Positions 9,650-63,548 of a stretch of 64,000 bases of DNA are shown here, piece by piece. The position numbers were made by a program, and so were the translations under genes. Numbering within the stretch: position 1 is the first letter of the stretch; every line of letters starts with the position of its first letter. A model generated the notes under the pieces. It was not told the DNA's origin. It made no database searches and saw only the letters and a list, made by a program, of their open reading frames with translations. The DNA comes from Dictyostelium discoideum (Eukaryota), in assembly GCA_000004695.1 (NCBI GenBank), contig CM000155.2, positions 3,360,001 through 3,424,000 of the forward strand, in the 5' to 3' direction.

Positions 9650-11221
9650 ATGAAAGTTTTAAATTTTATAATATTATTATTTATTAGTTGTTTATTTATT
9701 AATTATTCAAAATCACAAGATGAAACACCAATTACATTAATTGTAAATCCAAATAATAATAATACATATATTGTTGGTGAAAAATGTGGCATTGATACAT
9801 TTACATGTAATTCAATTAGTGATGCAGTTGCATACTTTAATTCAATTGCAGTATTAGTAGATAATGGAACTATTTATCAACAATTAAATATAAAATTATC
9901 AAATGGTACTTATGGAATTAAAGAGAGTCAAGTTAATTTATTTTTATTTAATTGTACAATTTCACCATTGGATGAAGGTGTTAGTAATGTTATTTTCAAT
10001 GGTTATCAAAATCCATTAAATCAAACTCAATCAATGATTTCAGTTCATGGAAATGGTGAAGGTACAACATCAGTATTAATCAGTGGTATTACTTTCTTGT
10101 ATTTCAATCATTCAATTTGTAATATCGTATCAATTGATACCTATATAAATGTAACATTTGACCAATGTAATTTCGATGGATACCAAGTTCAAAGTAATAC
10201 ACACATGATTTCATTCTCTAGAATTAATCCACCAGATAATGCCACAATACCAACAAGTTGCTTAATAATTTCAAATTCCAATATTTTCAATACCGGTGGT
10301 AATAATAACACTTCATCATTCTCGAATAGTGATATTATTTCAGTCTCTGGTTTGAATGTTACATTGTATAATGTTTATATTAATAGTATTATTAATTCAT
10401 TACCACAATCAGTGTTAAAGGTTGATAGCAGTTATACAAACATTACCAATTGTAAATTCTCCAATATTTATACCTCACTCGGTGTAGTTTATGGCTTCAG
10501 TAGTAATATAACATTCTATAATTCAACATTTGACAGATTGTCAGCCGTGTCAGGTCCAGGTTTATTCAATCATATAGCAAGCAATAGTTACAATTCAACC
10601 TTTACAATGGCCTATTGTTTAGTTAGTAATTGCTATTCACCAACAAGTGCTGGTGTAATTTTATTAAATAATCCATTCTCTGTTGCTTTACCAAATAATT
10701 ATATTATGTATTCATCATTTAATTATAATAATGGCTCAAGTGGTGGTGTTTTATATAGTACAACTGTTCCTGTGAATTTTGATAATTGCATTTTCGATTC
10801 AAATAGTGCAGTAATGGGATCGATTGCACAAGTTATTAAAACATCATTATCTGTATCATATTCAACAATATTAATTTCAAATTCATCAAATTTACATAGT
10901 ATTGCTCTTGGTGGTACATTTGTATCTTGGTATTCCGATGCTACATTCACTTTTAATACATTTAGTGGAAAACTTGTTTCTTTTGAATGTACAAATTCAA
11001 CAATTGTTATTGAAAATTCAAAAAATTTAAATCCATATTATAATTGTTATAGTTGTAAACAAATATTTGTTAATTCAAATTCAATTTGTAAAGGTAGTAG
11101 TACAACTTCAACATTAAATTTTGGTAGTGATAGTAGTAATAGTAATTCTTTTAAATTAATTCCAAATTTTTCAATTTTAATTTTATTAATAACAATAATA
11201 ACAATATCATTTAATTTTTAA
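9650..11221 (+). CDS. secreted, probably GPI-anchored Asn-glycosylated surface protein (beta-helix-like repeats). Single exon.
   Basis: The ATG is at 9650. The N-terminal signal peptide is MKVLNFIILLFISCLFINYS, there are more than 30 N-x-S/T sequons, and the C-terminal hydrophobic tail (ILILLITIITISF) is typical of a GPI signal. There are repeated I/V-x-F/ N-x-T motifs. 523 aa. Confidence 0.65.
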   Translation: MKVLNFIILLFISCLFINYSKSQDETPITLIVNPNNNNTYIVGEKCGIDTFTCNSISDAVAYFNSIAVLVDNGTIYQQLNIKLSNGTYGIKESQVNLFLFNCTISPLDEGVSNVIFNGYQNPLNQTQSMISVHGNGEGTTSVLISGITFLYFNHSICNIVSIDTYINVTFDQCNFDGYQVQSNTHMISFSRINPPDNATIPTSCLIISNSNIFNTGGNNNTSSFSNSDIISVSGLNVTLYNVYINSIINSLPQSVLKVDSSYTNITNCKFSNIYTSLGVVYGFSSNITFYNSTFDRLSAVSGPGLFNHIASNSYNSTFTMAYCLVSNCYSPTSAGVILLNNPFSVALPNNYIMYSSFNYNNGSSGGVLYSTTVPVNFDNCIFDSNSAVMGSIAQVIKTSLSVSYSTILISNSSNLHSIALGGTFVSWYSDATFTFNTFSGKLVSFECTNSTIVIENSKNLNPYYNCYSCKQIFVNSNSICKGSSTTSTLNFGSDSSNSNSFKLIPNFSILILLITIITISFNF

Positions 11222-20607: not shown

Positions 20608-23976
<3,369 letters not shown>

Positions 23977-27584: not shown

Positions 27585-27658
27585 GCCTTAGTAGCTCAGT
27601 TGGTACGAGCGTGAGACTGAAGATCTTAAGGTCGCTGGTTCGATCCCGGCCTGAGGCA
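27585..27658 (+). tRNA. tRNA-Phe (anticodon GAA)
   Basis: GCCTTAGTAGCTCAGTTGGTACGAGCGTGAGACTGAAGATCTTAAGGTCGCTGGTTCGATCCCGGCCTGAGGCA. The 7-bp acceptor stem GCCTTAG/CTGAGGC pairs, the anticodon loop is CTGAAGA, the T-arm is GCTGG-TTCGATC-CCGGC, and the discriminator is A. Internal A box TAGCTCAGTTGG and B box GGTTCGATCC are present. Confidence 0.9.
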
Positions 27659-29681: not shown

Positions 29682-31511
<1,830 letters not shown>

Positions 31512-32239: not shown

Positions 32240-32656
32240 TTAATTTTTTGGTAATAAAAGTTCTAACCTTTTAGTTATTGGAATTAATAATTCATTATCA
32301 ATATTATTTGCCAAAAGATTAATAGTGAATAGTGTATGATTTTTAATTAAATTATCCACAATACTCTTTGCACCAACTGAACTAATCTTATTATTATATA
32401 ATGATAATCTCGATAAAATATTATTAAAAGGAAACACTTGATTAGCAATTGATGTTGCACCAATATCACCAATTGAATTACAAGATAAATCTAAATTTGT
32501 TATAGTTTTATTTGACTTCAATGCAAAAGAAATCTCTTTTGCACCAATTGCACCAATTGAATTATATGATAAATCAATAAATTCAATCACATTATTCTCT
32601 TTAATTAATTTTACTAATGATAATACACCATCACTTACAACTATATTTTTATCATC

Positions 32657-32696
<40 letters not shown>

Positions 32697-34277
32697 GGTG
32701 GTGGTGAAGCTTCTTTTGGATTTGTTGTTGTTGTTGTTGTTGATTGAATATGTGAAGATTCAATAGAAGTTATTAATGATTGTGATAATGAAATTGATTT
32801 AATTGTTTTATTTTTAATTAATTGATTTGCAAGTACTGAAACACCATAATTACCAAGGGAATTACTTGATAGATCTAATTGAGTTAAATTTATATTATCA
32901 TTTATTAAACTAAATGATTTTGCTAATTTAATAGCACCTAATGCTTCTAAATTATTACTAAATAAATTTAAATATTTTATATTTGAATTCTTTAAAAATG
33001 AACCAATATATTTCGCACCTCTATGACAAATTGTATTACAAGAGAAATCAATTGATGTAATTGGTGATACACAATTAGAAGAAGAGGATGATGATGATGA
33101 TGATGATGAGGATGATGATAAAACTTCAAATGATTTTGATAATTGAATTATTCCATTTGAATTTATCCAATTAATTGATAAATCCAATTGTGTCAATGTT
33201 TTATTATTAATTATAATATCAGAGAAAGAAGAAGCACCACTATCTTCAATACAATTACTACTTAAATTCAATGTAGTAATCATTGTATTCTCATTGTATG
33301 CAATTGATTTCGATAATAATTTAGCACCTTGATCACCAATTCTATTACATGATAAATCAATATTTAAAATTGACCTATTCAATGATAATCCAAATGCAAT
33401 ATATCCAACCGCTTGATTATCAATTAAATTTCTTGATAAATTTAATGATTTTAATGATTTATTCTTTCCTAATGAATTTTTAAATGTTAATCCAATTTTT
33501 GTTATTGCTGTCGTTATTGTTGATTGTGAAATTTCTGTTGGTGTTGCTGTTGGTATTATTATTATTGATGAAGATTCTGGTGATGATGATTCTGGTGATG
33601 ATGATGAAGAAGTAGATGATGATGATGATGGTGATAATGAAAGTTTACAATTTGATAAATTTAAATCAGTTAATGATTGATTAAGTGAAATCATTTCAGC
33701 AAATGCTAAAGTACCTTCTTGAAATAATGAATTACAACTATACTGTAATGATGTTATTGAATTATTAATTGATAATGCTTTTGCAATTGCAACTGAACCA
33801 AATTGTTTAATATCATTAAATGATAAATTCAATGACTGAATAGATTTATTACTTGATAAACCATCAGCTAGTATAATTGCAGATTCATTAGATAATTGAT
33901 TATATGATAAATCCAATGACGATAATGAAAGAGGTGTAATTGTTTTAAGTATATTTGAAAATTTAGATAATCCCACAAATCCATTACTAGTCGACTCTTT
34001 ACCACCAATTTTACAACGACCTAAATCCAATGACCAAAGTATCGATTTATTGCCACTCATAATATCATTGATTATACCAATGGTGGAATTCGATGTCATC
34101 AATTTTATTGTTAACTTTATTTTAAAATATTCTGGTAAATTAACTAACGACTTTAATTGATTCAATAATCCTAAATCAATTTGGTTAAATGCTAATTCTA
34201 AATTTATTAAATTTGAATGATCTTTTAAATCATTTATAAATTCTTTTAAATTATTATTTCCATTATTTCCATTATTT

Positions 34278-34315
<38 letters not shown>

Positions 34316-34642
34316 TAAAAAATTACAATATAATATATTTAATTCAATTAAATTCTCTAAACTTTTAATTAATTTTGATAATTTTAATAAATTTAATTTA
34401 CATTGTTTTAATGATAATGTTGATGTTGATTTAAATGATGATAATATTTTTATTGGTAAATCTAGTATATCATTATTATTAAATTCTAAGAAATGTATTG
34501 TTTCTTTACAATATTTATTCCACTTTTTATCAATTAATGTTAATTGAAAATAATCTGCTGTTAATCTATTATTACTAATTAATGAAATAATCTTTTTAAT
34601 TATTATAACTGGTAATTTATTAATATTATCAACACTAATCAT
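32240..34642 (-). CDS. leucine-rich repeat protein of the ribonuclease-inhibitor (RNI) type, with a possible N-terminal F-box-like segment. 800 aa.
   Basis: The ATG is at 34640-34642. There are at least 12 repeats of the ~28-aa RNI-type LRR (LxxLDLSxNxIGxxGAxxLAxALxxNxSLxx). The N-terminus LPVIIIKKIISLI resembles an F-box core. It has Ser/Thr-rich linkers. Confidence 0.7.
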
Positions 34643-36259: not shown

Positions 36260-37009
36260 TTAATTTGTTGTATTTGTATCAGGAGTTGTAATTGTTGTTT
36301 TTGATTGATCTATTAATTCTGGGAAAATATTGACAAATTCGTGAATTTCATCTATACAATAATCGACATGAGGATCATTTGAAGTAGCACCAACCAAAAC
36401 AGTGTACATACCAGCTTTTTTTGCTTCTACTAAATTCTCTACAACATCATCGAAAAACACACAACCAGATGCATCGGTAGTGTCAGCTTTTTTCATTGCC
36501 ATTTGGTAGGCGACTGGATGAGGTTTTGAAAAGTCCATCATTTCTAAATAATCTAACCAAGCATCGAAACAATCATCAATTTCCAATTCACGTGTAACAC
36601 GTTTACAATGACCAATGTCGGCATTTGAAAAGATCACCTTTTTGACACCACTCTTTACACTCTTGAGACATGCATGTAATCGTGCATCTGGTTTTAAATG
36701 ACTCTTTAAATCTAATCCACCATGAACATAATCTAAATATTTGTCAATGTTTACTTCATGATTCATCATTAAACCTTTTAATGTGAGGCCATATGTTTTA
36801 TAATAATGATTTCTAACTTTATCTACCTCTTCCATTGGTAAATTCAATATGATTGACATATATTGAGTGATTCTATTACTAACTTGTGCTGCTAATCCAC
36901 ATGATTTTGGATATAATGTATTATCTAAATCAAATAATAATGTATGAATTTTACGTTCACCATTATTCTTTATTAAATTATCTGTTGAATTAATTTCTGC
37001 TACTGTCAT
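36260..37009 (-). CDS. HAD-superfamily pyrimidine 5'-nucleotidase (Sdt1/SSM1-like). 249 aa.
   Basis: The ATG is at 37007-37009. The HAD motif I is LLFDLDNTLY, with YYKTYGLTLKGLMMNH, KPHPVAYQMAM and VFFDD (motif IV). It is colinear with yeast Sdt1p, judged from memory. Confidence 0.75.
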   Translation of the reverse strand: MTVAEINSTDNLIKNNGERKIHTLLFDLDNTLYPKSCGLAAQVSNRITQYMSIILNLPMEEVDKVRNHYYKTYGLTLKGLMMNHEVNIDKYLDYVHGGLDLKSHLKPDARLHACLKSVKSGVKKVIFSNADIGHCKRVTRELEIDDCFDAWLDYLEMMDFSKPHPVAYQMAMKKADTTDASGCVFFDDVVENLVEAKKAGMYTVLVGATSNDPHVDYCIDEIHEFVNIFPELIDQSKTTITTPDTNTTN

Positions 37010-38571: not shown

Positions 38572-40098
38572 ATGAATTATTATCAAAATTTAAATGAAAA
38601 TAATCAATTTAAATATAAACCAAATTATAATTATAATAATAATAATAATAAATATATAAATAATAATTATAAAAATAATAATAATAATTTATTATTAAAA
38701 ATAATGAAAAAAATTAAAATTAAAATTTTAAATTTAATTGAATTTTTAAAATTTAATTTTAAAAAAACCAATTTTAAAATAATATTTAAACAAATTGGGA
38801 TTCAATTATTATTTATGTGTTTATTATTTGGAATTATTGCACCAATTTCAATTTTACTTTATAATAATTCACCATCAAAATATTTAGGTAATAAAATCCA
38901 ATTTTCAAGTGAAGATATTTATTCACCAATTGAAAATAATATTTCAATTTATGATAGAAAAGAATTTCCACAACAATGGTCACAAGTTAATATTTTATTA
39001 GACCCACATTCACATACAACTTATTCCGATGGAACATTAACACCTGAGGAGAATATAAAATGGCATATTTCCAATGGTTTCAATGCAATGTTTATGACCG
39101 ATCATAATAAAATCGAAGGTGGGTTAGAGGGACAGCGAATCGCCCAAAAGAAATACTCTTCAAAGATATTGGTGGTGCCAGGTATCGAATGGACAAATTG
39201 CAGATGTCATTTAAATTTAATTGGTATCAATGTGAATGTACCCTTAATTAAATTCCCAACAAATAAAGAAATTAAGGAAATAATTGATTTCGTTCATTCC
39301 CAAGGTGGGTTAGTTATATTGAATCATTATCCATGGAGTTACTGGGCAGGTTTAGACCAACCCTCAATGGAAGAATGGTATGAAATGGGCATTGACTTCC
39401 TCGAGGTTGTAAATATTGACACTATGGACTACCAAGGTATAGTATTTTGTAAAGACCATGACCTTCGTTATGTGACAGGTTCTGATTTCCATAGTAATCA
39501 ACATGCTTACTCTTGGACAGTTTTCAATATACCTCAATTACCACATGGTTCAATCCCAACTCAAGATCAATTAATTAAAACATTATTAGATAAATCAACT
39601 AAAACTTCATTTGCATTCGATTCACTTGCTAGTAAAACAGTTTCAGTTAAATCAAATAAATTAACACTTAATCCAACCTTCATTTTCTTATCACCTTGGA
39701 TTTATATAGGTGGTTTCTTTCATAGTTTTTTCGAATTAAAAAAAGGAATGTATAGTTTTGTAGATGGTAGTTGTACTGAACAAATTGTTGATATTCATAC
39801 CAATGAATTAGTTTCATTAGTAGCTTGGATTTTCTTTATTTTTATAATTGCCCAATTATTATATTTCACTTTAATTTTCACTTTAAATTATTTAAAATCA
39901 AAATTTAAAAATAAATCAAAAGAATCAACAACAATAAATAAAGAAGATTTTGAAAAAGAAAAAGAAACTGAAATAGAAAATGAAAAACAATCATCAATTA
40001 ATTTAGATGACAATTGTGACAATTGTGAAAGTAGTGGTAGCAGTAGTAATTCTTCTGATATTATATCAGATAATAGTTCAATAAGTAGTAACGATTAA
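38572..40098 (+). CDS. PHP-domain (polymerase/histidinol-phosphatase family) metal-dependent phosphoesterase, membrane-anchored. 508 aa.
   Basis: The N-terminus is poly-N, followed by a TM helix (IQLLFMCLLFGIIAPISILL). PHP motifs are LDPHSHTTYSDGTLTPEE (motif I, HxH...SDG), LNHYPW and VTGSDFHSNQH (C-terminal GSDxH). There are further TM helices (LVSLVAWIFFIFIIAQLLYFTLIF) and an acidic/Ser-rich tail. Confidence 0.7.
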   Translation: MNYYQNLNENNQFKYKPNYNYNNNNNKYINNNYKNNNNNLLLKIMKKIKIKILNLIEFLKFNFKKTNFKIIFKQIGIQLLFMCLLFGIIAPISILLYNNSPSKYLGNKIQFSSEDIYSPIENNISIYDRKEFPQQWSQVNILLDPHSHTTYSDGTLTPEENIKWHISNGFNAMFMTDHNKIEGGLEGQRIAQKKYSSKILVVPGIEWTNCRCHLNLIGINVNVPLIKFPTNKEIKEIIDFVHSQGGLVILNHYPWSYWAGLDQPSMEEWYEMGIDFLEVVNIDTMDYQGIVFCKDHDLRYVTGSDFHSNQHAYSWTVFNIPQLPHGSIPTQDQLIKTLLDKSTKTSFAFDSLASKTVSVKSNKLTLNPTFIFLSPWIYIGGFFHSFFELKKGMYSFVDGSCTEQIVDIHTNELVSLVAWIFFIFIIAQLLYFTLIFTLNYLKSKFKNKSKESTTINKEDFEKEKETEIENEKQSSINLDDNCDNCESSGSSSNSSDIISDNSSISSND

Positions 40099-40164
40099 AA
40101 AAAAAAAAATAAAAAAATAAAATAAAATAAACTTTTTATTTGTAAATATAATTAATTTTATTAT

Positions 40165-41090
40165 TTAAAAATTATCTAAAGCATTAAATAAAGAATGATA
40201 AGTTTCTAATAATAAAGGTTTAGCTAATTCTGAATTTTCTTTAAAAGCATCTGGTTTATTTGGATTCATATTTACACCTAATACTAAAATTACAATATCT
40301 ATACCATATTCTTTATGAAGTATTGAATTTACTAATTGTTTATTATTTTGTAATGATATTGGATAAACTTTACCAATTTTACCACAATTTGGATATAAAT
40401 TTTTAGTCACTTTTTCAAAGGTACCAGTATCTAACATTTCATATAATTGTTTATTTTGTGGTGTTTTCTTTAATCTCCATGTCGATTCTGTTGCAAATAA
40501 TTTACAACCTAAATTAAATTGTTCTAAACTATTTGAATTTTCAATTTTAATAATTTCAAACCTTTTATCCCATTTATCATTAAAATGCTAAATATAAATA
40601 TAAAAATTATAAAATAAATTAGTAAATAATTTAAAATATAAATTTCAGAGATATATATACCTTTTTAAATGATTGAATTAAATTATCAGAATAAATAGAT
40701 TTCTCTACCATCATTTTTAATTTAATATCATCTTCTTTTTCATGAAAATGTAAATATTCTGAAATTGCATTTGCAGATATCTCTGTTGCATCATCAATAT
40801 TGAAACCAAATGTTGAAGTAGATATGAAAGGAAATGCTAATGATCTCTCTTTTAATGCATCTGTTAATCTTTTCTTTCTATATTTTGGTCCAATAATTTT
40901 ACTAATATTTGAATTACTTTCATCAAAATTTTCATTTATTTTTGTTTGTGGTTGTATTGATGGTGATGATGTTGATGATGATGTTTTAGTTGCCGGTGTT
41001 GTTGTTGTTGTTGTTGATGATGATGATGATGATGATGGTGATGACGATTGAGGTATAGTTACAGCAGAGTTTGCAGTTTTTGCAGAAGTT

Positions 41091-41164
<74 letters not shown>

Positions 41165-42141
41165 TTTTAAATCGTTAATTGAAGTTGTTGATTTTGTTTT
41201 AATTGTATCATCTGTTAAATTATTAGTTGATTGAACTGTATTTTGTACTTTTGAACCTGTTTTTGTTGTTTTATCATCATTATTTCTATCTTCATTATCA
41301 CTGTCATTATTATTATTATTATTGTTATTATTATTTATTAACTGATTTGGATGATAATATTCATTTAAATGATCAAGATTCTAAAATGAATGAATGAATG
41401 ATAAATAAAATATATAGTTAGTTTTCCAAAATAATGTTTTTTTTTTTTTTCATTCTTATTTATTTTGTATTCTTACCTTTCTATAACATTTTGAACCAAA
41501 AGGACATTGTGGTTTAGTATTAGTATTATCTATCTTTTTCTTTTTATTTATATCTTCATTTTCATTATTTTGTTTTTGTTGTTGTAGTTGTTGATGCTGT
41601 TGATGCTGTTGCTGTTGTTGTGAATCAATTTGTTTTCTTTTTTTATCATCTTGACTTTTATTATTATCATTATTATTATTATTATTATTTATTGGTTGAA
41701 AAGTGACTAAAAATGTATACATCTCAAATAAAAGTGAAAAACAATCACCATCTTCTAAAGTATAATTTTGATCTTTTGCCATTTGAACAAAAAATTCTTG
41801 ATTTGCTTTCTTTAAGTATGATGGATTAATACCTGTCTAAAATTATTATTATTTTTGTTAGTAAAAAAAGAAAAAAATAAAAAAATGAAAAAATGAAAAA
41901 AAAAAAAAGAATTAATTTTTGAATTCATATATATATATACATAAATACTTACAGATGAAATGTAAACAGTATCATCATTTAAAGTGATTGTAATTTGTTT
42001 TCTTGAACATTTCTTTTCTTGTAATTGTTCAAATGTTCCTCTACCAATATAATAATTACCAATATCACTACAATTTAAAATTGCACCTTTCAATGAGTCA
42101 TCAATACATTTAATATTTAAACAATTATTTATTTTTTTCAT
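40165..42141 (-). CDS. FHA-domain + PBZ zinc-finger protein with a macro-domain-like C-terminal segment (APLF-like ADP-ribose-signalling / DNA-damage-response protein). The exons are complement(join(40165..40587,40661..41380,41477..41836,41953..42141)) = about 563 aa.
   Basis: All four exons are multiples of 3, and the introns are GTAAGT/GTAAGA/GTATAT...TTTTAG/TATTTAG. Exon 1-2 carries an FHA-like core (DIGNYYIGRGTFEQ...KQITITLNDDTVYISS). Exon 2 ends with the PBZ motif KPQCPFGSKCYRK|NLDHLNEYYHP (C-x-F-G-x-x-C-Y-R-K-N-x-x-H-x5-H) split by the intron. Exon 3 has N/S/T low complexity, then RSLAFPFISTSTFGFNIDDATEISANAISEYL, resembling the macro-domain SIAFPAISTGIYGYP..AA..A block. Confidence 0.6.
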
Positions 42142-42441: not shown

Positions 42442-44079
42442 TTAATTTAATTCTTGATTAATTTTAATTAATAAAGAATTAAAATAATTTGAATTCTCAG
42501 GTGATTTTGGTACACCTAAACCAAGTTTATACATATTTGATAGATTTGAAATTGCAGGTATACTTTTATTATTTAAATTGAAAGCATTTTGATAACAATA
42601 GAATGCTTTTGAATAATCAACATTTGTACCAAACCCATTGAAATGACAAACACCTTGATTTATATAAGCATCAGAATTACCTAATTCCGAAGCATCAATA
42701 AATAATTGTAATGCTTTTTTATAAGATTGTTCTCTTTTATTCTCACCTCTAAAATATTGTTCACCCAATATCACCATTGCCACTGAATCACCCCTCTCAA
42801 CACCCAATTCCAAATAATGATTAAACATATCCACATCCCTCTCACCAACACCACCAACACCATCCAAATAAAGTGATGCTAAAAATGCTGGTGCTTTACA
42901 ATTACCTTGTTCAATTGATAATTTTAAAAATTTAATTGAATCAATTAATTGTTCCTCCTCCTCCTCTTGATTATTACTATCTCTATTAATAAATGTTGAA
43001 CCTAATATAAAACTTGATTCAGAATCAGATAGTTTTGAAGAACCTTTAATTAAATATTTTAATGCTAATATTAAATGTTCTTCATTATTTAAAGTATCAT
43101 TTGAATAGGATGATAAATAGTATTTACCCAATTCCAATGTTGAGTTAACATCATCGAAATCAGTAGAAGCTTTATCTAACCAATAGATAGCTTGTTTCTC
43201 ATTTTTATCAATATTAAATTTACCATGTAATAAAATTAAACCAAGATTAAATTGAGCAACTGAAAAGTTTTGAATTGCACTTAGATGTAAATATCTTAAC
43301 CCTTTTTCAATTCTTTCTCTTTCACTAATTTCATCTTTAATTAAATTCTCTTTAAATAATACTGATTTCTTTCTTTCCTCTTTTAACCATTTTTTATAAT
43401 CAAATTGTTCTTCTTCATTATTATTATTAATTGATACCCAACCATTACCTAGTAAAACATTATTATCATTATTATTATTATTATTATTATTTGTAATTGT
43501 TGGAAATAATGGTTTAAATAAATTTTCAGTATTATTTAAAATTAATGATAAACCATATGCAAATTGACCTTTTGGATTATTATTATTGTCAGCTGATTTT
43601 CTAAAATATTCTAAAGCAATTTCATTATTCTTTTCAACGAGAATACCTTGAGCATAAAATGTACCTAAATGAAAATCAATCAATTCATCACTCTCCAGTA
43701 TATTTTGTTCTAATTGAATATATTTCTCAACTTCACCAGTTGTCATTTTACCTGTATAATCATCTCTAATCTTATTTAATAATTTTATATATTGATTTTT
43801 TGTTGATAATTCTTCATTATTATTATTAATATTATTATTATTATTATTATTAATATTACTATTATTAATATTACTATTATTTAATATTGTAGTTGGTGGT
43901 ACAGTTATTGATGGATTGTTATTACTATCACTATTATTATTATTATTATAATTATTATTATTATTATTATTTAAAGTAAATTCAATTGGTTTTTGTGTTG
44001 AAATACAAAATGATCTTTTATTATAACAAATTCTTTTAAAGACTTGAACTCTATTAAAAGAGAATTTTAATTTATTCAT
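42442..44079 (-). CDS. Sel1-like (TPR-family) repeat protein with a predicted N-terminal targeting segment. About 545 aa.
   Basis: The first true ATG is at 44077-44079; the track starts 3 codons earlier at a TTG. Multiple Sel1-type repeats are present (A..YF.KSA..GN..AQFNLGLIL..G; YKKALQLFIDASELGNSDAYINQGVCHFNGFGTNVDYSKAFYCYQNA). Confidence 0.65.
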   Translation of the reverse strand: MNKLKFSFNRVQVFKRICYNKRSFCISTQKPIEFTLNNNNNNNYNNNNNSDSNNNPSITVPPTTILNNSNINNSNINNNNNNNINNNNEELSTKNQYIKLLNKIRDDYTGKMTTGEVEKYIQLEQNILESDELIDFHLGTFYAQGILVEKNNEIALEYFRKSADNNNNPKGQFAYGLSLILNNTENLFKPLFPTITNNNNNNNNDNNVLLGNGWVSINNNNEEEQFDYKKWLKEERKKSVLFKENLIKDEISERERIEKGLRYLHLSAIQNFSVAQFNLGLILLHGKFNIDKNEKQAIYWLDKASTDFDDVNSTLELGKYYLSSYSNDTLNNEEHLILALKYLIKGSSKLSDSESSFILGSTFINRDSNNQEEEEEQLIDSIKFLKLSIEQGNCKAPAFLASLYLDGVGGVGERDVDMFNHYLELGVERGDSVAMVILGEQYFRGENKREQSYKKALQLFIDASELGNSDAYINQGVCHFNGFGTNVDYSKAFYCYQNAFNLNNKSIPAISNLSNMYKLGLGVPKSPENSNYFNSLLIKINQELN

Positions 44080-44539
44080 CTCAATCAATCTTCTTTCGTT
44101 AATGAAAAATTAAAAAAATAAAAAAATGAAAAATAAAAAAAAAATAAAAAATTAAAAAAAATAAATTTGAATGATTTTTTTTAAAACATTTAAATTTCAT
44201 ATTCAATAATAATCATGATTATTAAAAATAAATAAATTATTTTTGTTTGGTAATTATTGGTTTTTTTTTTTTTTTTTTTTTATTTTATAATTTTTAAAAA
44301 TTATTGAATAGAAAAAAAAAAAAAAATACAATAAATTCCATTGCCACTAGTCTGGTTACAAGGAATGGAATTTATTGTTTTTTTTTTTTTCCCAATTGAG
44401 AAAAAATAGGGAAATTGATAAAAAGCTTGAAAATGGATTATCGATGGTTCTCTATTATTATTCTAGAAAATTAAAACTAAACAAATATTTGAAAAAAATC
44501 TAGATTTTTTTTATAAAACTAAAAACAACAATAAAATAT

Positions 44540-47224: not shown

Positions 47225-47306
47225 TGTAAGCTAAGGGATTCGAACCCTTGTATCAATGATATTGCAGCCTTAATGCAACCCCTTAGACCAGCTCGGGCAA
47301 GCTTAC
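47225..47306 (-). tRNA. tRNA-Leu (anticodon AAG), class II with a long variable arm
   Basis: The minus strand is GTAAGCTTGCCCGAGCTGGTCTAAGGGGTTGCATTAAGGCTGCAATATCATTGATACAAGGGTTCGAATCCCTTAGCTTACA. There is a perfect 7-bp acceptor stem GTAAGCT/AGCTTAC, a Leu/Ser-type D arm (GCCCGAGCTGGTCTAAGGGG), an anticodon stem TTGCA/TGCAA with loop TTAAGGC, a variable hairpin TATCA-TT-GATA, a T arm AAGGG-TTCGAAT-CCCTT and discriminator A. Confidence 0.85.
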
Positions 47307-47769: not shown

Positions 47770-48807
47770 TTAGTTTTGATTTTTTTCAATGTAATCAATG
47801 ACAGCGCCAGTGAATTGTTTAGTTGAAGATTTACCACCGATATCAGAAGTTAAGGTACCTTCTTTAATGACGGCTTTAACGGCATTTTCAACTTTGGTAG
47901 CATGTTCATTTAAGCCTAAATGTTTTAACATCATAACAGAGGCTAATAATAAACCGGTTGGATTTGCTTTATCTTTACCGGCGATATCAGCAGCGACGTG
48001 ATGAGCACCCATTTCGAAAATAATACTTCCCTCACCAACATTTGCACCACCAGCCAAACCTGGACCACCAACTAAAGCAGCACCAATATTTGAGACAATA
48101 TTACCATATAAGTTTGGAGTGACCATAACATCGTATTGTTCTGGTGATTTAACCAATTGCATACAACAATTATCAATGATGGTGTTTTCAAATTTAATTT
48201 CTGGATACTCTTTGGCGATTTGAGTGCAAGTTGCAAGGAAGAGACCATCGGTTTGTTTTTGAATGTTTGCTTTGTGAACGGCTGTTACCTTCTTTCTACC
48301 GTTTGCTTTGGCATATTCGAATGCGTAACGAGCAATACGTTCTGATGCTTCTTTGGTTATGATTTTAAGTGATTGGACTACACCTGGTGTCAATACTTGT
48401 TCGAGACCACTGTACTCACCTTGGGTGTTCTCTCTAATGACAACAAAATCAACTAAAACATCGTCGTGACGTGCGGTGATACCTGGAATTTGTTTGCATG
48501 GTACAACGTGAGCATATAAATCTAATGCTTTTCTAAGTTCCATATTTCTTGATTGAGATCCTGATAAAATCTCAGTGTAAAGTGGTCCCTTTAATGCAAC
48601 TTTATTTCTAGTAATTGATGCAATCAATTCTTGTGAAATTGGTTGTCCACCACTAATATCGAAAATTTCCCATTCAATTGGTACTTTGGCTGCTTGGAAT
48701 ACACCCATAACTGATGATGTAATCTCTGGACCAATACCATCACCTGGAATAACTGTAACTGTTTTTTTTTGAACTCCTGATGTATATCCAAGATAATTTC
48801 TAATTGA
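47770..48807 (-). CDS. idhB: NAD+-dependent isocitrate dehydrogenase, regulatory (beta/gamma-type) subunit, mitochondrial. The visible exon is 47770..48807, and the first exon (Met + presequence) is not located.
   Basis: The exon begins after the acceptor TTTTTAG (48808-48814) with SIRNYLGYTSGVQKKTVTVIPGDGIGPEITSSVMGVFQAAKVPIEWE. It is colinear with human IDH3B (KVTAVHKANI..DGLFL; KFETMIIDNCCMQLV / KFENTIIDNCCMQLV; VMPNLYGNI; AGLVGG). The stop TAA is at 47770-47772. Confidence 0.75.
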   Translation of the reverse strand, partial: SIRNYLGYTSGVQKKTVTVIPGDGIGPEITSSVMGVFQAAKVPIEWEIFDISGGQPISQELIASITRNKVALKGPLYTEILSGSQSRNMELRKALDLYAHVVPCKQIPGITARHDDVLVDFVVIRENTQGEYSGLEQVLTPGVVQSLKIITKEASERIARYAFEYAKANGRKKVTAVHKANIQKQTDGLFLATCTQIAKEYPEIKFENTIIDNCCMQLVKSPEQYDVMVTPNLYGNIVSNIGAALVGGPGLAGGANVGEGSIIFEMGAHHVAADIAGKDKANPTGLLLASVMMLKHLGLNEHATKVENAVKAVIKEGTLTSDIGGKSSTKQFTGAVIDYIEKNQN

Positions 48808-53754: not shown

Positions 53755-58080
<4,326 letters not shown>

Positions 58081-59921: not shown

Positions 59922-61439
59922 ATGAAAAGAATTAGTATTTTAAGATTACTAAGAAATAATAAAAATATAAATGGAGTAATAAATTATAAACCAACAACAA
60001 TAACACTATCATCATCAATCATAACAACAACAACACAACGATCATTGTCATTAAAATTTAACAATGAAAATAGATTTTATAGTAGTAGTAAAGCTCTATT
60101 AAATGGTAACATTGTAAATAATGAAATTTCTAAATCAATTGAAAAAGTTAATGATCCAAATTCTTTTGAATATGTTTTAAGTGGTTTTTATGAATCAAGA
60201 AAATTTGAAAAAGCAATTAAATATTTTGAAGAAATTAGGGAAAATAATGACCAATTTAAACCAAATAAACTTATAGTAACTAAAATAATGAAATGTTATG
60301 CAAAATGTAATAAAATGGAGAAATGTTTAGAATTGTATAATGAAAATCAACAAGATTTCGATATAATAATGGGTTTAGTTTTAATTAAAGGTTATTTAGA
60401 TCAATCAAATTTCGAAGAAGCAATGAAATGGTTTGAAAAATGTCAACAATTAAATATGGATAATATTCGTCACTACACTGTCATTATTGGAAAACTCTCA
60501 AAATCTGGTCAATTCTCTATTATCGATATGATGTTGGATCAAATTAAAATTAAAAATTTAAAATTTGATACTCATCTCTACACAATCCTCTTTACTGGTT
60601 TACAATCTTTCATAGGTAATGGTCATCTTGACCGTACTTTAAAATTATATGAACAATTAATGAACGATTTAAAAACAGCATCAACAACAACAACAACAAC
60701 AGATTTAAAAATGGATAGTAAATTATTTAAAGAATTAGTTGAATGTTTATTTTATAAAAAGCTATATAAATCAGTTGTAGGATTATATGAAAAGTTTAAA
60801 AATTCAAATATTGATTTTTCACTTATTTTACCAAAAATTTTAACATCATATAATTATGATTATCCAAATTCTCCAAATGATGTAATTCAACTTTGGTCAA
60901 AAATTAAAAAACCATCACCAGGGAGTTATGCTTGTTATTTCCATTTTTTAAATAACTGTAATGAATTTAACTATTTCCCAAATTATAAATTTAATATAAT
61001 TGATATTGTTGAAAAAGAATTAACATTGAATAAGAATAATATGAACTTATTTCAAAATGATATTTTCATTGTAAATCAAATTATTAGATATCATATTATA
61101 GATAATGATTTCTCATCGGCTTGGTCAATTTTCCAATATACACTTTCAAATTCAATTGCTGATGTTTTTTCATTTTTTTATATTTTAAAATATCTTACAA
61201 ATCATTCAACTAATCCAATAGTTTATAATAATTTAAAAGAAATCCTAACAAGTAGTTATTATATTAATCTAACAAAACAATATTCAGATTATAAAAAAGT
61301 AATTTGGATTCCAATTTTAAAACGTTTAAATTCATCTGAAGAATTTAAACCACAATTACAACAAACTATTAAATTATTAGAATCTCATACTTCTGAATCT
61401 TTAATTTTTTATAATAAAGCTTTAGGTAGAAATAACTAA
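59922..61439 (+). CDS. pentatricopeptide/TPR-like helical-repeat protein with a predicted mitochondrial presequence. 505 aa.
   Basis: The N-terminus MKRISILRLLRNNK is basic and amphipathic. There are ~35-aa repeats with PPR-like spacing (FEYVLSGFYESRKFEKAIKYFEEIREN..; LIVTKIMKCYAKCNKMEKCLELYNE..; MGLVLIKGYLDQSNFEEAMKWFEKCQQ; YTVIIGKLSKSGQF..). Confidence 0.5.
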   Translation: MKRISILRLLRNNKNINGVINYKPTTITLSSSIITTTTQRSLSLKFNNENRFYSSSKALLNGNIVNNEISKSIEKVNDPNSFEYVLSGFYESRKFEKAIKYFEEIRENNDQFKPNKLIVTKIMKCYAKCNKMEKCLELYNENQQDFDIIMGLVLIKGYLDQSNFEEAMKWFEKCQQLNMDNIRHYTVIIGKLSKSGQFSIIDMMLDQIKIKNLKFDTHLYTILFTGLQSFIGNGHLDRTLKLYEQLMNDLKTASTTTTTTDLKMDSKLFKELVECLFYKKLYKSVVGLYEKFKNSNIDFSLILPKILTSYNYDYPNSPNDVIQLWSKIKKPSPGSYACYFHFLNNCNEFNYFPNYKFNIIDIVEKELTLNKNNMNLFQNDIFIVNQIIRYHIIDNDFSSAWSIFQYTLSNSIADVFSFFYILKYLTNHSTNPIVYNNLKEILTSSYYINLTKQYSDYKKVIWIPILKRLNSSEEFKPQLQQTIKLLESHTSESLIFYNKALGRNN

Positions 61440-61823: not shown

Positions 61824-62083
61824 ATGATTTTTTTAAATTTTTATTTTTTTGGGTTTGGGTGCAGTGTTTTCACCTTATTTTGTTTTGTTTTTTTATTTTT
61901 AAAAACATTCCAAAAAAAGATGAAAACTAAAAATATTCAAAAACCATTACCACAAAAAAGAACATCATATTTTTATTGTATAAATATAAAGAATTTAACA
62001 ACAAATGTAGATAAAATTATAACAATATATCCACAAAATTGTGATTGTACTTGTAATTGTTCATTCCCTTTCTCTCAAACTAG

Positions 62084-62141
<58 letters not shown>

Positions 62142-63548
62142 AATACTACAACAAAAACAACAACAAGATCAACATCAAAATCGACATCAACATCAACATC
62201 AGCAACAACACCAATATTTCAATTAGAAGGTAGTGGTGAATGTACATGTAGTTGTAATTGTGAAAATAATAATAATAATCAAATAATAACAGGTAAAAAT
62301 AATAATGAATTAATATTTAAATATTTTAAATTTAAATGTTGTTTATGTCTATGCCATAATAGAGAATTTTATTTAAAAATTATTCAATTAAAATCATCAA
62401 CTACATTATTAGATAAATGTTTTATTGAAGAGTATAATACTTTTACAAAAGTAGTAACTTCAAATAGTAATAATAATAATAATGATGAGGAAGAAGAAAA
62501 AGAAGAAGAAGAAGAAGAAGAAGATATAAGAATTTATTTTAATAATTTAAATAATAATGAATTTATTATTAATGATTATAGTAGTGAAATATTTTTAAGT
62601 ATACAACAAAATAATAAAATTATAAAATATCATTTATGTATTGACGAATTACCATTGAATAAATTTAAGAATTTTCAATTTTATAAGAATAAATTAAGTT
62701 CTAAACCAGATGGTGATCGTATTGATGCAATTCATGCAGAATGGTATAACAATTTAAATAAATTAGAATATCATCATGGTTATGTTCAATGGTTATTCCC
62801 ATTATATGCAAACAATGGTATGAATTATCAAGCATATGCATTGGATAGGATTGAATCGAAATTATTTAGAAATGATATTGATATTGCAAAGAGAATCATT
62901 AAATCCTATGAATTAATGTTAAATTTCTATGGTATTAGATTAGTTAATAAACATACTGGTCAATTGGAAAGATCAAAAGATTTACAGCATTCAAAGAAAC
63001 AATTCAATAATTTATCAAATAATTCTCATAATAATTTACGTATTAGTAGAATCATCACTTTCTTAGGTTTAGTTGGTTTTAAAAGATATAAAAAACCTTT
63101 AGTAGATTTCTTAAAATATCATATTAATAATGGTAATTTATCAATTTCAAAATATAGTATAAAAAATTATTGGGAACCTTTAATTGATTATTCAAAATCA
63201 AATTCAAAATGGTAAATACTAAAAATAAAAAAATAAAAAAATAAAAAAATAAAAATAAAAATAAATAACTTTTTATTAATATCTAAATTTATTTTAAGGT
63301 ATTTTGAAAATACATTAGAGAATGATAATGATAATGAAGAATCAATTTATTTTCATTATATTCATGATATTGAAAGAGCAGAGAATCAAGAGAAACAAAA
63401 GAATGAAGAGAAAGATAAAACAGAGAGTGTAGAGGAAGAATATGATATAAATGACGATGATGATGATGGGACAGATATTGAAGATTGTAGTAAAAAAATT
63501 TTTAATGATAAATATAGTTTACATCAAAATAATTATTTATATAATTAG
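61824..63548 (+). CDS. opioid-growth-factor-receptor-like (OGFr N-domain) protein. The exons are join(61824..63211,63299..63548); the N-terminus and the last exon are tentative.
   Basis: The conserved block is HGYVQWLFPLYANNGMNYQAYALDRIESKLFRNDIDIAKRIIKSYELMLNFYGIRL, an OGFr_N-like YxQWLFPL motif. The donor GTAAAT is at 63212 (phase 2) and the acceptor TTTTAAG is at 63292-63298, giving an acidic 83-codon last exon. The first ATG 61824 encodes a very hydrophobic Phe-rich leader that may be UTR. An alternative start is MKTKNIQ at 61920. Confidence 0.5.

Follow-up and report, generated by a model that had tools for sequence, protein, structure and literature searches.

The four-exon Dictyostelium discoideum gene apl and its APLF-like product with FHA, PBZ and circularly permuted macrodomain modules

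Gene structure

The window analysed here is a stretch of 64,000 nucleotides (nt) of Dictyostelium discoideum DNA (GenBank assembly GCA_000004695.1, contig CM000155.2, positions 3,360,001 to 3,424,000 of the forward strand); all positions given below are those of the window. On its minus strand lies a coding region of four exons, read from the A of the ATG at 42141 to the last base of the TAA at 40165, whose joined exons give a product of 563 residues with an FHA domain, a PBZ zinc finger, a low-complexity linker and a macrodomain (coordinates in Table 1). The locus is the published D. discoideum gene apl (DDB_G0293866, UniProt Q54B72), and is therefore already known and not new. The protein was described by Gunn et al. 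2016 (J Cell Sci 129:3845, PMC5087659).

The exon lengths (189, 360, 720 and 423 nt) are all multiples of 3, and all three introns are consequently in phase 0. Retention of any one of them leads to a frameshift or an early stop, and an in-frame TAG stands two codons upstream of the ATG. The introns are 84–92% A+T, against 76–78% for the exons. The composition of the window (20.9% G+C) and its short, still more A+T-rich GT..AG introns are typical of a dictyostelid genome. An origin from a prokaryote or a mobile element was rejected in view of this G+C content, the spliceosomal GT..AG introns and the ordinary eukaryotic neighbours.

Five dictyostelid orthologues (D. purpureum, Polysphondylium violaceum, Heterostelium album, Cavenderia fasciculata and one EukProt sequence) were aligned, and align without gaps over all three exon joins. 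The joins are further supported by the sequence of PDB entry 5LW6, which is uninterrupted across the join of exons 3 and 4, and by the published cDNA of 1689 nt, which equals 563 codons (Gunn et al. 2016, PMC5087659). Four of the orthologue proteins (D. purpureum, P. violaceum, H. album and C. fasciculata) were mapped onto their own genomic loci to place introns. The position of intron 1 (before NG[IV]NPSY, phase 0) is identical in all four; intron 2 (between CYRK and N) is present in D. purpureum, P. violaceum and H. album and absent from C. fasciculata; intron 3 (after FKK) is present in D. purpureum, P. violaceum and C. fasciculata and absent from H. album, which has an intron between T318 and E319.

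The long low-complexity linker (residues 196-342), of which neither length nor sequence is conserved among the orthologues, could be taken to mean that the four-exon model is wrong and that separate transcripts, or different splicing, account for the FHA/PBZ and macro parts. A single uninterrupted exon (41380-40661), however, holds the linker together with the domain segments on either side of it, the PDB construct crosses the join of exons 3 and 4, orthologues in five species have a common architecture and common intron positions, and the 1689-nt cDNA has been amplified in full and expressed (Gunn et al. 2016, PMC5087659). We regard such split or alternative transcripts as extremely improbable and as essentially refuted already. 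The original prediction, made from the letters of the sequence without database searches, had proposed this four-exon gene of 563 residues at 40165-42141 and is correct in every detail as judged by the gene model, the orthologue joins and the published cDNA length; the low-complexity region that it had noted between the PBZ finger and the macro part is likewise found, with 46 N, 25 S and 24 T among 147 residues.

Identity of the gene

In a search against all PDB sequences, residues 340-563 were 100% identical to chain 5LW6_A (molecule name 'DDB_G0293866'; E 5e-146). The Foldseek library gives 5LW6 the title 'Dictyostelium discoideum ADP-ribose binding macrodomain (residues 342-563)', and the UniParc entry of the macrodomain construct (P0009) is labelled D. 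discoideum. The source of 5LW6 is Gunn et al. 2016 (PMC5087659), in which the macrodomain structure is solved and the architecture of the protein, APL, is given as FHA + PBZ + macro. The combination of domains that had been predicted thus matches the one published for APL in 2016; it is unusual beside that of APLF, as had also been stated, but not new.

Constructs were made from cDNA in that work for the full-length protein (nt 1-1689), FHA (nt 1-336), PBZ (nt 504-591) and macro (nt 1026-1689), and these limits, as well as residue E439 (the same in our translation), all fit the 563-residue model. In comparison with published APL, the product has the same length of 563 codons, identical C-terminal 224 residues, the same E439 numbering and the same domain order FHA-PBZ-macro; no difference was detected, residues 340-563 being those compared letter by letter.

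FHA domain and PBZ finger

A family profile built from 7 dictyostelid N-termini was searched against the PDB. All eight matches at E <= 0.01 are FHA domains, of aprataxin (4.1e-8), APLF (6e-6) or PNKP (2e-4 to 8e-4), and the alignments to aprataxin and APLF span ~80-90 residues. G33, R34, S46, R47, N67, P68 and S69 are invariant in six dictyostelids, and in the alignment to aprataxin and APLF the Gly-Arg and Ser-Arg residues fall on IGRG and CSRQQ / VSRRH. The Gly-Arg, Ser-Arg and Asn (NPS loop) residues bind the phosphopeptide in the PNKP and APLF FHA structures. Judged by its sequence, the FHA domain of APL is of the aprataxin/APLF/PNKP subtype, with the predicted phosphopeptide-binding residues kept.

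The PBZ (zf-CCHH) poly(ADP-ribose) (PAR)-binding zinc finger is matched by Pfam PF10283 at residues 171-195 (E 3.3e-11; 43.4 bits, cut-off 22.7), over model positions 1-25 of 26. The ligand residues C174, C180, H187 and H193 are spaced C-x5-C-x6-H-x5-H in KPQCPFGSKCYRKNLDHLNEYYH, where an aromatic residue and a Gly follow the first Cys and the core reads YRKN; six dictyostelids have these residues without exception. Intron 2 divides the finger between the second Cys and the first His, into CPFGSKCYRK and NLDHLNEYYHP, exactly as had been written in the original prediction. The finger aligns to both fingers of APLF, PBZ1 and PBZ2, and as a glutathione S-transferase (GST) fusion (GST-PBZ, nt 504-591) it binds PAR in a dot blot (PMC5087659).

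Circularly permuted macrodomain

The C-terminal part of a canonical macrodomain, with the ISTxxFG loop, has its counterpart in residues 343-423, and the N-terminal part, with the GDIT position, in residues 424-563. The C-terminal block RSLAFPFISTSTFGFNIDDATEISANAISEYL (residues 362-393), previously described as macro-like, does belong to a macrodomain; the refinement is that the domain is circularly permuted, and the ISTxxFG motif therefore comes first in it.

In profile searches against the PDB, APL 352-423 aligns to residues 167-235 of the 240 of MACROD2 and 167-225 of the 235 of MACROD1 (E ~1e-5), and rice 5LW0 residues 98-224, the counterpart of APL 424-563, align to canonical MacroD 27-131 (E 6e-7), with GDIT and NAAN..GGGGV; the rice and APL macrodomains are themselves linked by profile searches at E 2e-13 and 2e-6. 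At the level of sequence profiles, the APL macrodomain is composed of two canonical halves in swapped order. A Pfam re-scan of segments re-ordered to the canonical order gained little and did not demonstrate the permutation: the best, that of H. album, reached 17 bits over model positions 50-118, and all remained below the cut-off. The same conclusion of a permutation was reached by Gunn et al. 2016 (PMC5087659), whose crystallography gives a six-stranded sheet flanked by helices, the fold being retained.

An AlphaFold2 model was made of the D. purpureum macrodomain, which is 72% identical to that of D. discoideum (predicted local distance difference test score, 87.8). In Foldseek it superposes on 5LW6 at a template modelling score (TM) of 0.94 and on rice 5LW0 at TM ~0.75-0.8; only these two permuted structures were matched, and no canonical macrodomain at E <= 0.001. 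Such an absence is expected where a sequential aligner meets a circular permutation, and a Foldseek run with this predicted model cannot show fold identity with canonical macrodomains.

E439 stands at the position of the GDIT Asp, which contacts adenine, and F374 at the ISTxxF position, at the distal ribose; the acidic adenine contact and the aromatic residue are assigned in the same way by Gunn et al. 2016 (PMC5087659). The orthologues vary between E, N and D at the acidic position that contacts adenine. A basic patch, GPKYRKKRL (residues 347-355, window 40865-40891), lies immediately before the first strand of the macrodomain. It is largely conserved among the orthologues as GPKY(R/K)KK(R/K)L, with Y350, K352 and K353 invariant, and may serve as a nuclear localisation signal or add to the PAR binding seen on blots.

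Intron 3 is located exactly at the seam of the permutation, where the former C-terminus (...IYSDNLIQSFKK) is joined to the former N-terminus (HFNDKWDKRFEI...), and a phase-0 seam intron is present in four of five dictyostelids. Introns are not mentioned by Gunn et al. 2016 (PMC5087659). The poppy homologue runs through the seam in one exon and has an intron after NAANW instead, and for poppy the seam intron as an ancient relic shared with plants was rejected. Permuted macrodomains of this kind are thought to derive from tandem macrodomains, and the seam intron could be a trace of the linker between them.

Relation to known proteins

Human APLF is composed of an FHA domain, two tandem PBZ fingers and a C-terminal acidic histone-binding tail. 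APL resembles it in its N-terminal FHA domain of the same subtype, in a PBZ finger with C-x5-C-x6-H-x5-H spacing and YRKN core, and as a PAR-dependent DNA-repair scaffold. It differs in having a single PBZ finger (Pfam, 563-residue model), with the permuted macrodomain in place of PBZ2 and the acidic tail, and in an FHA domain that scores higher against aprataxin than against APLF; unlike APLF, it responds to cisplatin and not to strand-break agents (PMC5087659). By its architecture APL is APLF-like but not an APLF orthologue, and Gunn et al. 2016 (PMC5087659) also treat it as APLF-like, not as APLF.

The same permuted macrodomain family includes the plant aprataxin-like 'bHLH140' proteins (rice Q10MW4, PDB 5LW0; Arabidopsis, Camelina, Papaver). 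The rice homologue matches APL residues 343-558 at E 6e-15, and plant profile matches have E 1e-40 or better. In these proteins the macrodomain is fused to a polynucleotide kinase-like kinase (PF13671) and to aprataxin HIT/zinc-finger domains, not to FHA and PBZ, and, unlike dictyostelid APL, they keep GDIT and NAAN..GGGGV.

With the canonical MacroD-type macrodomains (MACROD1, MACROD2, Oceanobacillus iheyensis MacroD, Af1521; PF01661), APL shares the fold, according to the published structure (PMC5087659), as well as the acidic residue that contacts adenine and the ISTxxFG loop, with its aromatic residue at the distal ribose; it differs in the swapped order of segments and, in dictyostelids, in the loss of the Gly-rich loop sequence. 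It is because of this swapped order that the Pfam model and sequential structure aligners miss the APL macrodomain.

Function and alternatives

On blots, GST-APL, GST-PBZ and GST-MACRO bind PAR in vitro (PMC5087659). Myc-APL becomes enriched in chromatin after cisplatin, but not after methyl methanesulfonate, phleomycin or 4-nitroquinoline 1-oxide; this enrichment is almost abolished by deletion of the macrodomain and depends on the ADP-ribosyltransferase Adprt2, being lost in cells without it (PMC5087659). In a 2021 review, APL is counted among the verified factors of interstrand-crosslink repair, and a scaffold role is favoured, as APL is without a domain of recognised enzymatic activity.

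We consider it highly probable (about 0.93) that the gene is apl and that its product is a non-enzymatic DNA-damage-response scaffold of three reader modules joined by disordered N/Q/S/T-rich linkers. A PAR-reader scaffold is the best-supported mechanism, the scaffold role and the FHA ligand being its inferred parts. ADP-ribosylation by Adprt2 at cisplatin lesions would create the mark; the macrodomain, probably together with the PBZ finger, would read ADP-ribose and bring APL onto chromatin; and the FHA domain would then tether a phosphorylated repair partner, holding other repair factors there. The human aprataxin, APLF and PNKP FHA domains dock onto CK2-phosphorylated XRCC1 and XRCC4, and by analogy with them we infer that the APL FHA domain docks onto a phosphorylated repair partner.

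A number of points weigh against this reading. The exact 563-residue model had no match in a collection of 15 billion proteins, and a full-length homologue search, in which the 8000 candidates sharing most words were scored, gave 8 matches, the D. discoideum protein not being among them. The query is rich in low-complexity repeats; with a profile restricted to the domain, over 200 relatives were recovered along with the D. discoideum construct. As the full-length D. discoideum protein was not found, the case for full-length identity is made by cDNA length, residue numbering and the identical C-terminal 224 residues.

In Pfam, generic FHA (PF00498) has no match in the 563-residue model, FHA_2 (PF17913) matches residues 28-72 of the single sequence at 22.1 bits, below its cut-off of 23.1 (E 1.4e-4), and Macro (PF01661) scores 14.5 bits where 22 are required, its alignment being confined to model positions 88-117 of 118 and to the 42 residues with which the APL macrodomain begins. 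Macro falls short because the circular permutation breaks the sequence order of the model, not the fold. The original prediction had proposed these Pfam searches as a check and had held that their failure for FHA or macro would speak against it. Only PBZ passes; taken literally, the prediction would have to be given up, but that demand is too strict, because the family profile finds the FHA domain and the C-terminal domain is the solved macrodomain, and the reading of three domains stands. On the functional side, the available excerpts of Gunn et al. 2016 (PMC5087659) and of the 2021 review report no FHA ligand for APL, and those of Gunn et al. 2016 no repair defect of apl- cells.

The remaining points concern ligand recognition by the macrodomain. 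Loop 1, which in canonical macrodomains is Gly-rich (NAAN..GGG) and binds the diphosphate, reads TESTWRLKKTPQNK in D. discoideum (residues ~455-470, window ~40450-40500) versus NAANWRLKPGGGGVN in rice. In six of six dictyostelids, NAAN..GGGGV is replaced by (T/S/I)E(S/T)x..K(T/I)(P/A)(Q/S)NK, with a two-residue deletion and no Gly, whereas rice and other plant homologues keep NAAN..GGGGV. Co-crystallisation was attempted with 2 mM ADP-ribose, but a complex with the ligand was obtained for the rice macrodomain only; the authors describe both substrate-binding loops as structurally apparent (PMC5087659). With the Gly-rich loop lost and a ligand complex for rice only, the backing for canonical mono-ADP-ribose binding by the D. 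discoideum domain comes from blot assays only.

These observations, together with the variable acidic adenine position (E, N, D) and with the fact that PAR blot assays are permissive for basic proteins, would suit a degenerate dictyostelid macrodomain of which the canonical ADP-ribose pocket is unused, APL reaching chromatin via another ligand, a protein partner or the basic patch KY(R/K)KK(R/K)L. E439 and F374 are nevertheless in place, GST-MACRO binds PAR in vitro, enrichment on chromatin requires Adprt2 as well as the macrodomain, and both loops are apparent in the structure according to the authors (PMC5087659); we hold a degenerate domain to be unlikely. It is likewise doubtful that the dictyostelid permuted macrodomains, having lost the Gly-rich loop, read ADP-ribosylated chromatin in a non-canonical manner, through another moiety of PAR, the basic patch at 347-355 or a protein partner.

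The nearest canonical relatives by sequence are the MacroD-type hydrolases MACROD1, MACROD2 and O. iheyensis MacroD, from which it might be supposed that the macrodomain is an ADP-ribosyl hydrolase of this type and that APL erases ADP-ribosylation rather than reading it. In MacroD-type enzymes, however, NAAN and the Gly-rich loop make up the active site; D. discoideum has TEST...KTPQNK in this region instead. Deletion of the macrodomain abolishes recruitment, which is the behaviour of a reader (PMC5087659), and the 2021 review describes APL as without any domain of recognised enzymatic activity; a hydrolase is very improbable on these grounds. It was through APL that ADP-ribosylation was first connected with interstrand-crosslink repair, as published in 2016, and this picture is unchanged by the present analysis. 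Small additions beyond the 2016 paper are the conserved intron positions, including that at the permutation seam, and the loss of the Gly-rich loop sequence in dictyostelids. The case is chiefly a control: raw sequence alone was enough for a reader to put the four exons together and to name the three domains correctly, one of them a permuted macrodomain missed by Pfam.

Other features of the window

Table 1 Features of apl and other features of the window. aa, amino acids; nt, nucleotides; incl., including; ORF, open reading frame.
Feature	Position in window	Strand	Details
apl (DDB_G0293866), whole coding region, ATG to TAA	40165..42141	-	4 exons, 3 introns, 563 aa; length equals published cDNA nt 1-1689
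Exon 1	41953..42141	-	189 nt; aa 1-63; first part of FHA, incl. G33-R34, S46-R47
Intron 1	41837..41952	-	116 nt; GTAAGT..TTTAG; 89.7% A+T; phase 0; directly before T64-G-I-N-P-S-Y
Exon 2	41477..41836	-	360 nt; aa 64-183; remaining FHA, N/Q/K-rich linker, first half of PBZ with C174, C180
Intron 2	41381..41476	-	96 nt; GTAAGA..TTTAG; phase 0; cuts PBZ finger between CYRK and N
Exon 3	40661..41380	-	720 nt; aa 184-423; second half of PBZ with H187, H193, N/S/T-rich linker, first segment of permuted macrodomain
Intron 3	40588..40660	-	73 nt; GTATAT..TTTAG; phase 0; between K423 and H424, the seam of the circular permutation
Exon 4	40165..40587	-	423 nt incl. TAA (40165-40167); aa 424-563; second segment of permuted macrodomain
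FHA domain, aprataxin/APLF/PNKP type, aa 1-112 (incl. intron 1)	41690..42141	-	Pfam FHA_2, family profile against PDB; published GST-FHA construct, nt 1-336
PBZ (zf-CCHH) poly(ADP-ribose)-binding zinc finger, aa 171-195 (incl. intron 2)	41345..41515	-	Pfam PF10283
Low-complexity linker, aa 196-342	40904..41344	-	46 N, 25 S, 24 T of 147 residues; mostly AAT/TCA/ACA repeats
Circularly permuted macrodomain, aa 343-563 (incl. intron 3)	40168..40903	-	Identity to 5LW6_A, PDB profile searches
tRNA-Phe(GAA)	27585-27658	+	ARAGORN
Class-3 lipase ORF	29682-31511	-	
LRR_6 protein ORF	32240-34642	-	
HAD hydrolase ORF	36260-37009	-	
tRNA-Leu(AAG)	47225-47306	-	ARAGORN
Isocitrate/isopropylmalate dehydrogenase fragment ORF	47770-48708	-	
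PPR-repeat protein ORF	59922-61439	+	
OGFr_N-domain protein ORF	61824-63215	+	

The six large open reading frames listed in Table 1 look like ordinary housekeeping genes; the long frames at 53755-58080, 21112-23976 and 9650-11221 have no Pfam match. Upstream of apl lies a gene for a Sel1-repeat protein (PF08238, E 2e-29; 42442-44088, minus strand), its stop codon ~300 base pairs from the apl ATG. On the other side, a gene for a PHP-domain membrane protein of 508 residues (PF02811, E 2.5e-6; 38572-40098, plus strand) converges on apl, with 66 base pairs of A/T-rich sequence (40099-40164) between the two stop codons; the 3' untranslated regions of the two genes probably overlap. A tail-to-tail PHP-domain neighbour of apl is also found in P. 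violaceum (locus L003). In C. fasciculata (locus L004, 3030-3942), the APL orthologue is arranged tail-to-tail with a gene for a RecQ-family helicase (DEAD, Helicase_C, RQC), an adjacency that is probably coincidental, though both are DNA-repair genes.

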